A stretch of 15,506 bases of DNA from IMG/VR virus record IMGVR_UViG_2700989487_000004. One strand, written 5' to 3'. How positions within the stretch are numbered: position 1 is the first letter of the stretch; every line of letters begins with the position of its first letter. Origin of the DNA: a virus (lineage: Duplodnaviria; Heunggongvirae; Uroviricota; Caudoviricetes). A model generated the notes under the pieces. It was not told the DNA's origin and ran no database searches. It saw only the letters and a list, made by a program, of their open reading frames with translations. Below, piece by piece: positions 596-7,509 of this stretch. The position numbers and the translations under genes were made by a program.

Positions 596-613
596 CACAT
601 AAAACGTTTTTCA

Positions 614-1261
614 TCAGCGACCAATCACCACAACCTGACCACCATCACCTTCATCTGCCGTGCTGATCTCCTGAGATACCACCCGGGACCCCACGCGCAT
701 TTCGCCATACAGCACCGGCAGCGAATTACCCTGTGCAACCATATTATCTAGCGAAGAAAAATAGGTGTTCTGTTTGCCGTTATCCGTGCTGGTCGCTGTG
801 GGAGTTCTGGCTTTCGGTGCCAGCATCTGCGCCACTCCGCCCAGGACCATACTGGCCCCTGCCGCATACATGCCCGATACAGCCGCGGCACCCAGCCAGC
901 CCACAGGGTTCCACCATGCCACCGCAATCAGCGCCGCCCCAAGCACCACCTGAAACACACCGCCACTTTTAGCTCCCACCAGACGCGGCACGATGTGGAT
1001 CACGGCACCATTTGCCAGCGGCTCATTAAGACGGGCAGACAATTCGGTTTCACCAGCATCACGCCCGGCAATGCGTACCTGATACCAGCCGTCGCTCAGT
1101 TTCTGACGAAACGCCGGGATCTGTGTGGCCAGCGCCCGGATGGCTTCGGCCCCCGTTTTCACACGAAGGTCGATGCGGCGGCCAAATCGTTGCAAATCCC
1201 CGTAAAGGCAGATGCGTGCCATGCCCGGTGACGCCAGAGGGAGTGTGTGCGTCGCTGCCAT
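614..1261 (-). CDS. I: Tail tip assembly protein I (ubiquitin-like N-terminus)
   Basis: 215-aa ORF MAATHTLPLASPGMARICLYGDL...GGQVVVIGR resembling lambda gpI; ATG at 1259-1261 preceded by GAGAGAGG; a stop lies 11 codons upstream in frame, so no earlier start is possible; overlaps the K 3' end. Confidence 0.85.
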   Translation of the reverse strand: MAATHTLPLASPGMARICLYGDLQRFGRRIDLRVKTGAEAIRALATQIPAFRQKLSDGWYQVRIAGRDAGETELSARLNEPLANGAVIHIVPRLVGAKSGGVFQVVLGAALIAVAWWNPVGWLGAAAVSGMYAAGASMVLGGVAQMLAPKARTPTATSTDNGKQNTYFSSLDNMVAQGNSLPVLYGEMRVGSRVVSQEISTADEGDGGQVVVIGR

Positions 1262-1902
1262 TTGTCGGTATACCTCTCTCGTTTGCTCAGTTGTTCAGGA
1301 ATATGGTGCAGCAGCTCGCCGTCACCACAGTAAATGGCGGCATGATTCGGCACCGATGAACCAAAACAGCACAGCAGCACATCGCCCGGCTGCGCCGCTG
1401 ACAACGGCACCTGATACAGCCCTGTGGCCTCCAGATTATCCAGATAGAGATTCTGACCGTTACGCCACCAGTCATCCCCGCGATGAAAATCCGGCATCTC
1501 AATCCCCGCCAGATGATAAGCATCCCGAAACAGCGTGTAACAGTCCGTCACCCCGTGCTCAAAGCGACGCCCGGTGAGATGCGGCACACAGCGGAACTTG
1601 TGAATCTCACCCCGGCAGACCAGCCACCACGGCAAATCACTCTGCACCTGCAGCCGCCGGTCAGCCTCACTCAGCCAGGGCAGACCACCGGGATGACTGT
1701 GGACCAGTGCCACAATCTCACCCTGCATCTCTGCCTGCAGCCAGTCCTCCGGAGCCATCCGGAAATAATCCTCCGGCTCACCGGAAATATTCACGCAGGG
1801 AAAATATCTTTCCCCCTCCGGCGCTCTCACCACGAAGCCGCACGACTCCGCTGGCGCACATCGCCGGGCGTGCGCCAGAATCGCTGATTCTGTCTCTGTC
1901 AT
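1159..1902 (-). CDS. K: Tail tip assembly protein K (JAB/MPN metalloprotease domain + NlpC/P60 domain)
   Basis: ORF with JAMM motif HSHPGGLPWLSEAD (HxHx7SxxD) followed by an NlpC/P60-like Cys/His region (VTDCYTL ... NHAAIY); start placed at the internal ATG 1900-1902 (MTETESAIL), 4 nt after the L stop; the track's 5' extension to 1944 would overlap L. Confidence 0.8.
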   Translation of the reverse strand: MTETESAILAHARRCAPAESCGFVVRAPEGERYFPCVNISGEPEDYFRMAPEDWLQAEMQGEIVALVHSHPGGLPWLSEADRRLQVQSDLPWWLVCRGEIHKFRCVPHLTGRRFEHGVTDCYTLFRDAYHLAGIEMPDFHRGDDWWRNGQNLYLDNLEATGLYQVPLSAAQPGDVLLCCFGSSVPNHAAIYCGDGELLHHIPEQLSKRERYTDKWQRRTHSLWRHRAWHASAFTGICNDLAAASTFV

Positions 1903-6009: not shown

Positions 6010-6310
6010 AACGCACACCTCCGGAAATACCTTCCCCAAGATGCATCAGTTCTTCGTCCGTTCGCTCCGGTATCCCGTTCTCTTCCGGTAAAAGGCTGAA
6101 ATCAGCCACCGCAGCATCACTGCTACCGGACACCATTCTCACGATCAATGCCTTCAGCGAGGCAAACTGCGCATCCATCCACACATCACTGAAGCTCTGC
6201 ATCCGGAAATAATCGCCCCACTCACCAAGCTCAGTGGCCGACATTTCCGACAGCATCCGCCGCCAGTCTGCCCGTCGGAACTCCCGGGCAAGCCGCATGA
6301 CAAACTGCAT
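5981..6310 (-). CDS. T: Tail assembly chaperone T segment, expected to be made only as a G-T fusion by -1 frameshifting near the end of G
   Basis: ORF in the -1 frame relative to G; that frame is open upstream to 6343 and so overlaps the last 8 codons of G; position between G and H as in lambda. Confidence 0.8.
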   Translation of the reverse strand: MQFVMRLAREFRRADWRRMLSEMSATELGEWGDYFRMQSFSDVWMDAQFASLKALIVRMVSGSSDAAVADFSLLPEENGIPERTDEELMHLGEGISGGVRYGPDSQPGH

Positions 6311-6318
6311 TTCCCGCG

Positions 6319-6705
6319 TCAGGACTTTTCCGGCGTCAGCGCCTCATGCTCATCATCCCCGGCATTATCAATGGTCCCCATACCGCTCAGCGACAGAACC
6401 ATCTCCGCCCCCGCACCCAGGGCATCATACGACCATGTTGTAATAACGGATGCGCAAAGCGTCTCTACATCCTTAGACTGATCCGCATTCCACAGTGAGC
6501 GGGAAACCAGCCAGGCATTGATATCCATCCCCATCCGCAGAAAAGCAATCTGTCGTTCAGCCTCCGGCAGTTCTCCCTCTTCGGCATCAAACTTTGCCGT
6601 TCGCTGCTGAACAAACGCCAGATATTCAATTCTCTGCAGCCCGGACAGCTCACTGAGCACCACGGACTGCTTTTCATAATTAAACGTGCCCTGTTTCAGA
6701 AACAT
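6319..6705 (-). CDS. G: Tail assembly chaperone G
   Basis: ORF MFLKQGTFNYEKQSVVLSELSGLQRIEYLA... ending ...TPEKS; start at ATG 6703-6705 (or 6706-6708) downstream of AGGTGGAG; the track's 6747 start is a TTG inside the upstream hairpin and was rejected. Confidence 0.85.
   Translation of the reverse strand: MFLKQGTFNYEKQSVVLSELSGLQRIEYLAFVQQRTAKFDAEEGELPEAERQIAFLRMGMDINAWLVSRSLWNADQSKDVETLCASVITTWSYDALGAGAEMVLSLSGMGTIDNAGDDEHEALTPEKS
6325..6331 (-). promoter_or_regulatory. Putative -1 programmed ribosomal frameshift slip site G-GAA-AAG joining the G and T frames
   Basis: Minus strand reads GCG CTG ACG CCG GAA AAG TCC TGA; the -1 frame is open only from 6343, so any shift into T must occur in this 25-nt window; the only A-rich slip candidate is GGAAAAG. 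Confidence 0.6.
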
Positions 6706-6721
6706 CATGTTCTCCACCTGC

Positions 6722-6745
6722 AAAAAAGCCCCGGATAATCGGGGC
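6722..6745 (-). terminator. Intrinsic terminator-like hairpin after V (GCCCCG-AUUAUC-CGGGGC + UUUUUUG)
   Basis: Perfect 6-bp GC stem followed by a U6 tract on the minus strand, 19 nt past the V stop and just before the G ribosome-binding site. Confidence 0.55.
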
Positions 6746-6765
6746 AAATGATGAGTATCGTCCTG

Positions 6766-7509
6766 TTAACCTGCGGCGCTGACAGCCACCGTAGCCACTG
6801 CCACAAAATCGCCGTCAGAAGTCATGCCCACAATGCTGACACTGCCCTGCTTCACGCCTTTCACCGTGGCCACAAGCCCGTTCAGGGTCACCGTGGCAGT
6901 CTGTGGATCTGTCGAATGCACACTGATCGCTTTGTCACTGGCTCCGTCAGGTTTTACTGTAAAGGTCAGCGTGGTGGTTGCTCCCACTTTTACACTGGCA
7001 GATGCCGGTGCCACCGTCAGCCCGGTAACGCCCACGGTTTCAGTGCCTTCTTCTGCCAGATACGGACGCCCCACACCGCTGATTTTCACTGTGCGGGTCA
7101 TCACGTCTTTTGAGGCAATGGTTTTACCCAGTGAACTCAGCCAGCCACGGAAAACATCAACAGTACCGTTGGGATATTTGATACGAAACGCGCAGACTTC
7201 ACCGGAGTCGAACAACTGAACCAGTTTTTTCTGCCCGCTGTCACCCGGACGCCAGGCCAGCGTCGCCGAAGTATCACCGACGGATTTCTGCCCCTGGGTT
7301 GTCGTTTTCCAGTCTGCATCTTCATCATCGAGATAAGTGTCATCTTCTGCATCAGCGGTCATTTCGCCAGGTTGCAGATCCTTCACCATCGCAAGACGCA
7401 GCCAGTCAGTGTCCGACAAAGGGTTCGCAAACGCATCGCCGTTGCCGGTATACATCCAGAACGTCGTCCCCGCACCTTTCGTCTTTGCCAGTGGATTTGG
7501 TGTGGTCAT
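6766..7509 (-). CDS. V: Major tail protein V with C-terminal Ig-like (Big_2-type) domain
   Basis: ORF MTTPNPLAKTKGAGTTFWMYTGNGDAFANPLSD... resembling lambda gpV; ATG 7507-7509 preceded by AAGGAGGTGG; Thr/Val-rich C-terminal region typical of an Ig-like domain. Confidence 0.9.
   Translation of the reverse strand: MTTPNPLAKTKGAGTTFWMYTGNGDAFANPLSDTDWLRLAMVKDLQPGEMTADAEDDTYLDDEDADWKTTTQGQKSVGDTSATLAWRPGDSGQKKLVQLFDSGEVCAFRIKYPNGTVDVFRGWLSSLGKTIASKDVMTRTVKISGVGRPYLAEEGTETVGVTGLTVAPASASVKVGATTTLTFTVKPDGASDKAISVHSTDPQTATVTLNGLVATVKGVKQGSVSIVGMTSDGDFVAVATVAVSAAG

Follow-up and report, generated by a model that had tools for sequence, protein, structure and literature searches.

A terminator-like hairpin between the tail genes V and G of cdtI/mEp460-type lambdoid prophages, and the retention of its stem among relatives

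The window, a stretch of 15,506 nucleotides from the IMG/VR virus record IMGVR_UViG_2700989487_000004 (Caudoviricetes), carries the lambda-like head-tail module of a cdtI/mEp460-type lambdoid prophage. Its genes all lie on the minus strand and were recognised through Pfam: portal, a ClpP-protease/major-capsid fusion, a cement protein, a Gifsy-2-family protein, Z, U, V, G, T and the tape-measure gene H. V and G are separated by an intergenic gap of 57 nt, and it is in this gap that a short G+C-rich hairpin followed by a run of U is found (Table 1). A preliminary description made from the letters alone had placed a hairpin with its U run at positions 6722–6745, with the ribosome-binding site of G just past it, and re-reading the minus strand returned exactly these coordinates and the motif GGTGGAG immediately beyond. 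The location of the hairpin behind the V stop codon was likewise correct, and only the distance, given there as 19 nt, has to be amended to 20 nt.

Table 1. Features at the V-G junction and other hairpins of the head-tail module (positions are those of the window).
Feature	Position	Strand	Details
V, major tail tube	6766..7509	minus	Pfam Phage_TTP_12 (1.5e-66) and Big_2; 247 aa + stop
V stop codon	6768..6766	minus	TAA; from sequence
Spacer, V stop to hairpin	6765..6746	minus	20 nt; from sequence
V-G stem-loop	6745..6728	minus	GCCCCG-AUUAUC-CGGGGC; 6 G-C pairs, 6-nt loop, −11.8 kcal/mol
Hairpin 5′ arm	6745..6740	minus	GCCCCG
Hairpin loop	6739..6734	minus	ATTATC
Hairpin 3′ arm	6733..6728	minus	CGGGGC
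U6 tract	6727..6722	minus	abuts the stem; followed by G at 6721
G Shine-Dalgarno	6718..6712	minus	GGTGGAG; GGAG core at 6715..6712
G, tail assembly chaperone	6319..6708	minus	Pfam Phage_TAC_2 (6e-40)
Sister hairpin after capsid gene	9162..9143	minus	GGCCC-GUAA-GGGCU + U7; 23 nt past the stop of the ClpP-protease/major-capsid fusion
Second hairpin after capsid gene	9130..9114	minus	AGCCCC-UGAAC-GGGGCU, no U-run; flanked by the capsid terminator and the next gene's ribosome-binding site (start at ATG 9099)
Third mEp460 ‘rho-independent terminator’, inside T coding region	6107..6090	minus	GGCTG-ATTT-CAGCC + TTTT

A stem directly followed by six U is the anatomy of an intrinsic (rho-independent) terminator. 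Such elements are expected to have a stable, G+C-rich stem of about 5–14 pairs with a loop of 3–8 nt, to carry a U-rich tract directly 3′ of the stem, and to lie on the coding strand in non-coding sequence past a stop codon; all of these are present in the window, and the U-rich tract is poorly represented in the Fels-1-like relatives described below. On the opposite strand the same stem can form without a T-run, as CAAATGATG comes after it, and since the T-run is found on the coding strand alone, the element is one-directional and shares the orientation of the genes. Between the stem and the G Shine-Dalgarno there are 9 nt, and the hairpin lies 19 nt upstream of the first G start codon, the GGAG core being 3 nt 5′ of ATG 6708 and 6 nt 5′ of ATG 6705. 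On the V side, the length of the spacer probably keeps the stem out of reach of ribosomes that terminate at the stop codon, and the hairpin would thus be clear of both ribosome footprints, at the V stop and at the G start.

The start given for G in the open reading frame track, TTG 6747, would have translation run through the hairpin, and the preliminary description had argued against it; it is indeed wrong. Deposited records begin G at ATG 6708 (mEp460, Ayreon) or at ATG 6705 (RefSeq/PGAP), the aligned G homologues all start with MMFLK or MFLK, and the Pfam model starts at residue 2 of the protein read from ATG 6708. One relative (L096) has ATG ATT at the G start, so that only the first ATG is usable there. 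Moreover, the number of T residues between the TTG and the ATG varies from five to six to seven in close relatives, which breaks the TTG reading frame, and this length polymorphism marks the hairpin and U-run stretch as non-coding. TTG 6747 is simply where the open frame offers its earliest potential start. The start of V probably needs a similar change, from GTG 7584 in the track (272 aa), which appears to be too far upstream, to ATG 7509: the homologous coding sequences in mEp460, Ayreon, Fels-1 and RefSeq are 744 nt long, which corresponds to ATG 7509, and the translation from there, MTTPNPLAKTKGAGTT (also listed as MTTPNPLAKTKGAG...), matches the N-termini of the homologues. An antisense ORF of 121 aa that starts with ATG and adjoins the hairpin (6748..7113, plus strand) has no Pfam match and is treated as probably spurious. 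At the 3′ end of G (window 6319..6335, minus strand) the sequence reads ...CCG GAA AAG TCC TGA, while the reading frame of T carries on at −1; GGAAAAG is probably the counterpart of the lambda G-T frameshift site GGGAAAG.

The junction is common in E. coli, a 301-nt V-G query being present in 1835 of 5426 complete genomes; the copies in O157:H7 strains are 95–96% identical. The prophage of E. coli 214-4, which adjoins prfC, is 100% identical over this query and has, about 13 kb upstream of the junction and oriented like it, a gene for an ‘antiterminator Q family protein’, after which come genes for lysis, terminase, head and tail; mEp460 also has a Q-like ‘late gene regulator’. With the Q gene upstream and in this orientation, the hairpin lies deep inside a Q-antiterminated late operon. 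The head-tail operon of mEp460 is tightly packed, its junctions overlapping or leaving 8–11 nt, apart from its two largest non-coding gaps, one of 86 nt behind the capsid gene and one of 57 nt behind V. Since both of these gaps hold a terminator-like hairpin, the hairpins follow the genes for capsid and tail tube, which are the most abundant proteins of the virion, and we count this arrangement in favour of the explanation preferred below.

The gap after the capsid gene holds a tandem. Its first member, the sister hairpin, is annotated as a terminator in both mEp460 (rho-independent) and Ayreon, and Fels-1 keeps it with a GUCA loop and U7. At the position of the second member Fels-1 has a hairpin of different sequence. 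Judged by its layout, the tandem would cap the upstream RNA at its 3′ end and the downstream RNA at its 5′ end, and it lends mild support to the role proposed below. Lambda itself has a stem-loop directly after its capsid gene E, AUGGCCC-UUCG-GGGCCAU, with a fold energy of −12.3 kcal/mol and a poor U-run (lambda 7163..7180; L003 2164..2181). The third terminator annotated in mEp460, inside the coding region of T, corresponds in the window to a weak 5-pair stem that neither of our scans, loose or strict, flagged.

That the V-G hairpin is a terminator in the sense of annotation is already known, and it is an ordinary kind of element. The V-G region is 97.5–99.4% identical to that of sequenced coliphages including cdtI, mEp460, Ayreon, Tritos and phi458, and two of these records carry a feature at the hairpin site: a ‘rho-independent terminator’ in mEp460 (JQ182728.1, 8751..8774; 98.0% identical over the region) and a ‘terminator’ in Ayreon (MF807953.1, 8742..8782; 97.8% identical over the region). 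ARNold was used to call the Ayreon terminators (PMC5764929). Both features are in-silico predictions, by ARNold in the case of Ayreon, so the run of a terminator predictor that the preliminary description had proposed has in effect been made at the same site, and our consensus scan of the window agrees with it. The window shares with both phages the V-G junction, the arms, the T6 tract and the sister terminator after the capsid gene, and differs from them in carrying a minority loop allele, A rather than G at 6739, which leaves a stem of 6 pairs rather than 7. The commonest allele, GCCCCGG-UUAU-CCGGGGC, forms 7 pairs around a UUAU loop and folds at −15.0 kcal/mol, compared with −12.6 for mEp460 and −11.8 for the window, whose allele is thus a weaker minority form.

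The hairpin is very unlikely to occur here by chance. A loose consensus scan of the window found 30 terminator-like sites against 13.5 expected, and the V-G hairpin was near the top of this list, with 6/6 G-C pairs and the tail TTTTTTGCAG. Under a strict rule, which asks for 6 pairs without mismatch (5 or more being G-C), a loop of 3–8 and 5 or more T among the 6 bases that follow, it is the sole match on both strands of the 15.5-kb window, and only 2% of 300 dinucleotide-preserving shuffles gave any match to this rule anywhere in the window on either strand. Folded in isolation, the hairpin has an energy of −11.8 kcal/mol. The whole 81-nt context shows no unusual stability (z = −0.18), but its centroid structure keeps the V-G hairpin and nothing else, so the signal is local. 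One minimum-free-energy (MFE) fold pairs the spacer segment CAUCAUUU with AGGUGG of the G Shine-Dalgarno; this pairing was set aside, as its frequency in the ensemble is 0.014, the centroid lacks it and no compensating changes accompany it among the variants. A search of both strands of the whole window against Rfam 15 at the gathering threshold gave no matches.

The comparison with relatives gives a clearer view of what has been kept. Among 88 scored loci of E. coli/Shigella type (group A: 79 from IMG/VR, 7 genome contigs and 2 phages), every one keeps the stem and a run of T5–T7; an 80th IMG/VR locus (L004), which fell outside the position filter used for scoring, is identical to the window at the hairpin site. 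What varies in this group is the loop, with G or A as the seventh base and a change of T to C, together with the base that closes it (C, T or G), the length of the T-run, the spacer and the Shine-Dalgarno. The preliminary description had named absence of the hairpin from close relatives with the same junction as the finding that would count against it, and no such absence was observed. The same arms, GCCCCG and CGGGGC, are present in 64 of 64 Fels-1-like loci (groups B and C), which comprise Salmonella Fels-1, Citrobacter and a large IMG/VR group, the G protein of Fels-1 itself being 53.7% identical to that of the window. In these loci the spacer, whose sequence is conserved among the E. coli relatives, is entirely different, the loop reads GCUC, ACUC or GUUC, the sequence downstream has changed and the U-run is down to 2–3 U (UUUG, UUGG or UUCU). 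In the intergenic alignment the arms stand out as the longest invariant blocks, and the six-pair core of the stem is unchanged in 151 of the 152 scored relatives of lineages A–C, the exception (L027) having lost the basal C. Compensatory covariation was sought in the E. coli/Fels-1 stem and none was found, because the stem does not vary within these lineages. The 64 Fels-1-like loci thus show a stable stem-loop at the 3′ end of V that is kept independently of terminator function, as is expected of a stabilising hairpin. It was also observed that a full U-run goes together with a strong GGAG Shine-Dalgarno, and the decayed U-run of the Fels-1-like loci (L114–L175) with a weak one, GGGA or GGAA; there may be a trade-off here between transcriptional and translational control of G.

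Beyond these lineages, other genera have terminators of their own at the junction. Providencia phage PSTCR8lys, P. heimbachae and one IMG/VR locus (L105), together group D, carry the unrelated stem AGCCACA-NNNNN-UGUGGCU with U-rich tails between V and G. Eight IMG/VR contigs of Providencia/Proteus type (group E, L106–L113) have a third stem, AGGTCGC-NNN-GCGGCCT, directly 5′ of G, with a T5–T7 run in 7 of the 8 and an extended stem instead in L106. Across both groups nearly all stems have a T5–T7 run; they are analogous to the stem of the window and are not alignable with it. The group E contigs also hold 0.8–1.4 kb of extra genes between V and the terminator (~600..1460), namely Rha, KilA-N or KilA-N+P63C, all antirepressor-like, so that in this lineage the V-G junction is a moron insertion site; the extra coding sequence with a terminator that marks a moron is found in L106–L113 and not in the window, whose 57-nt gap contains no ORF. 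The V proteins of the same eight contigs lack the C-terminal Ig-like domain.

A third arrangement dispenses with the hairpin altogether. In lambda, phi80, mEp043, VT1-Sakai, an Stx2a phage, four Proteus loci and Superficieibacter, the V-G gap is 10–25 nt long and holds a ribosome-binding site only. For the genome scan, a G-protein alignment of seven sequences was too divergent, and one of three sequences yielded 14 loci. A different kind of change was seen in E. coli O157 PA11 (NZ_CP145942.1; L176 1190..2505), where a half-length match had looked like a mosaic recombination joint at the hairpin. This was ruled out when the interruption proved to be IS1203, of the IS3 family, inserted in the V-G spacer directly 5′ of the hairpin and accompanied by duplication of a TTT target. 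The end of IS1203 (TGAACCGCCCCGGG) contains the hairpin-arm sequence GCCCCGG, which might explain the choice of target.

Taken together, these observations suggest on balance, with somewhat more confidence than doubt, that the likeliest role of the element is that of a leaky terminator combined with a hairpin that protects the 3′ end and so favours V mRNA over the mRNA of G, T and H. The element would act in cis and at the RNA level, as an intercistronic stem-loop in the late mRNA. RNA polymerase with incomplete protection by Q, or with none, would stop at the hairpin and U6, which would make it a leaky terminator; transcripts ending at the hairpin, either by termination or by endonuclease cleavage in the U/A-rich stretch downstream, would carry a stable hairpin at the 3′ end, and this would block 3′-to-5′ exonucleases. 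The predicted outcome is that the V message, and by way of the sister element the capsid message, is raised relative to those of G, G-T, H and the distal tail genes. RNA 3′ ends would accordingly form at the hairpin and alter the V:G ratio. The preliminary description had proposed partial termination or 3′ stabilisation that raises V over G, GT and H, and this reading fits the comparative data.

The two halves of this proposal are not equally well placed. Leaky terminators balance expression in phage operons (PMC9163698), and terminators within late operons are recognised in P22 and phage L, where partial termination is one possible role (PMC8022706). In lambdoid late operons, however, Q makes RNA polymerase resistant to intrinsic terminators, a point for which the phage L paper refers to structural work (PMC8022706), and Q-modified polymerase is therefore expected to pass them, so that termination during lytic growth may be small and would be partial at best. 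With a U-run of only 2–3 U, the termination half is weak in the Fels-1-like loci, and the fact that they keep the stem without the U-run suggests selection on the hairpin itself. Together, the Q-antiterminated operon and the Fels-1-like stem favour RNA stability over efficient termination. The unrelated terminator-like stems just 5′ of G in the Providencia/Proteus types are also counted in favour of the combined role. On the other side, lambda, phi80, mEp043, VT1-Sakai and the Stx2a phage assemble tails of this type with a gap of 10–15 nt and no hairpin, which means that the hairpin is not needed to set tail stoichiometry, and the homologous V-G junctions of Proteus and Superficieibacter, also without it, mark the element as dispensable for such tails. 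The literature offered nothing directly usable on Term-seq or other 3′-end maps of this phage type, or on lambda ribosome profiling of V versus G; Term-seq data for EHEC Sakai are deposited in GEO (PMC7547250).

Several other explanations can be envisioned. The hairpin may be an insulator that stops polymerases which started without Q, whether from spurious starts in the head genes or by read-through in the lysogen, keeping the tail genes silent in the prophage and having a small effect in lytic growth. Insulation is one of two possible roles listed for terminators inside late operons (PMC8022706), and a Q-dependent operon and a full terminator anatomy are what it would call for; we nevertheless regard it as unlikely, since within the window the coding strand showed no sigma-70-like promoter ahead of V, the loss of most of the U-run in the Fels-1-like lineage would weaken a pure terminator there even as the stem is kept, and the placement right after the two most abundant structural genes would go unexplained. 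If the junction is instead a dock for morons that bring a terminator with them, the hairpin could be a leftover or an insertion boundary with no present role for V or G. The eight Providencia/Proteus-type IMG/VR contigs speak for such gene traffic, as V is followed there by Rha or KilA-N genes, some of the latter with P63C, and then by the terminator and G, and IS1203 sits directly 5′ of the hairpin in PA11. Yet a functionless relic should decay, and this stem is unchanged in 151 of 152 relatives although the spacer has diverged beyond recognition; moreover, a terminator is likewise present here in Providencia phages that lack morons, and the 57-nt gap of the window holds no remnant of coding sequence, all of which makes this origin improbable.

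An effect on translation is more doubtful still. The hairpin would part ribosomes terminating on V from the G start, or tune access to the Shine-Dalgarno, so that G is translated independently of V. The 9 nt between stem and Shine-Dalgarno would suit this idea, as would the MFE fold in which CAUCAUUU pairs with AGGUGG and the association of a strong U-run with a strong GGAG and of the Fels-1-like form with GGGA or GGAA. The stem itself, however, excludes both the Shine-Dalgarno and the start codon, the extended pairing is rare in the ensemble (0.014) and missing from the centroid, and the variants in spacer and Shine-Dalgarno come without compensating changes. The element might also be a chance inverted repeat with no function, for it is short (18 nt) and its 81-nt context is not unusually stable; but any such site arises in only 2% of shuffles, counting the whole window and either strand, and this one is on the coding strand, in one of two sizeable non-coding gaps, and kept across lineages, which renders chance very unlikely. 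A different question is raised by the stem sequence. A hairpin that ends in a U-tail is what Hfq classically binds, StxS from tR′ being an example. That the arms are kept letter for letter between E. coli and the Fels-1-type loci of Salmonella, Citrobacter and their like, where spacer, loop, U-run and ribosome-binding site have all changed, could mean that GCCCCG/CGGGGC has a sequence-specific role beyond termination, as a signal for RNase processing or protection, as the 3′ module of a small RNA released by cleavage of the V mRNA, or as a short conserved ‘linker’ for recombination of tail modules that also takes in morons and IS elements; we give this a slim chance.

The combination of a leaky terminator with a protective 3′ hairpin has several partial precedents. 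Among them are the terminators that follow the procapsid module in phage L and P22, which are likewise predicted intrinsic terminators inside one antiterminated late operon and past abundant structural genes (PMC8022706). They differ in belonging to another phage group, in lying at a head-module junction rather than between tail tube and chaperone, and in having no sequence relationship to the V-G element. In lambda, V and G are homologous, the gene order is the same and a hairpin follows capsid gene E, but the V-G gap is 15 nt and no hairpin is found in it. The T-phi terminator of T7 sits after the major capsid gene 10. It thus resembles the V-G element as an inefficient terminator placed right after the most needed structural gene, so that fewer transcripts reach the distal genes. 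The use of inefficient terminators to balance T7 expression is cited in PMC9163698. T-phi acts on T7 RNA polymerase, however, whereas here the enzyme is that of the host, modified by Q and expected to ignore most intrinsic terminators.

For the stabilising half of the proposal, the malE-malF REP and the puf operon are examples of intercistronic stabilising hairpins, which belong to selective RNA processing and stabilisation. In the Clostridium cellulosome operon, an intercistronic stem-loop at the 3′ end of the promoter-proximal, more needed cistron has been proposed to set stoichiometry through protection from 3′ exonucleases (PMC4423207), and stabilising hairpins in other operons follow the same logic (PMC4423207, PMC11696848). 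The best fit to this class is the Fels-1-like form, a stem with almost no U-run; the V-G element, known here from its sequence, is not a REP sequence and has no Rfam match at the gathering threshold.

Overall, the finding opens no new question, as the role of late-operon terminators has already been described as known but unresolved, the phage L paper suggesting either partial termination or the blocking of spurious transcription (PMC8022706). What is added to the public annotation is modest: a stem conserved letter for letter across lineages whose U-runs have decayed, unrelated terminators just 5′ of G in other genera, and a junction that has been used by morons and by an IS element. For annotation, the start codon of G is fixed and a non-coding regulatory gap is marked in about one-third of complete E. 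coli genomes, which is relevant to the engineering of these prophages or of their tails. If the proposed role is correct, the V-G hairpin would be another case in which a single antiterminated structural message of about 20 kb still gives capsid and tail tube more message than their downstream neighbours.
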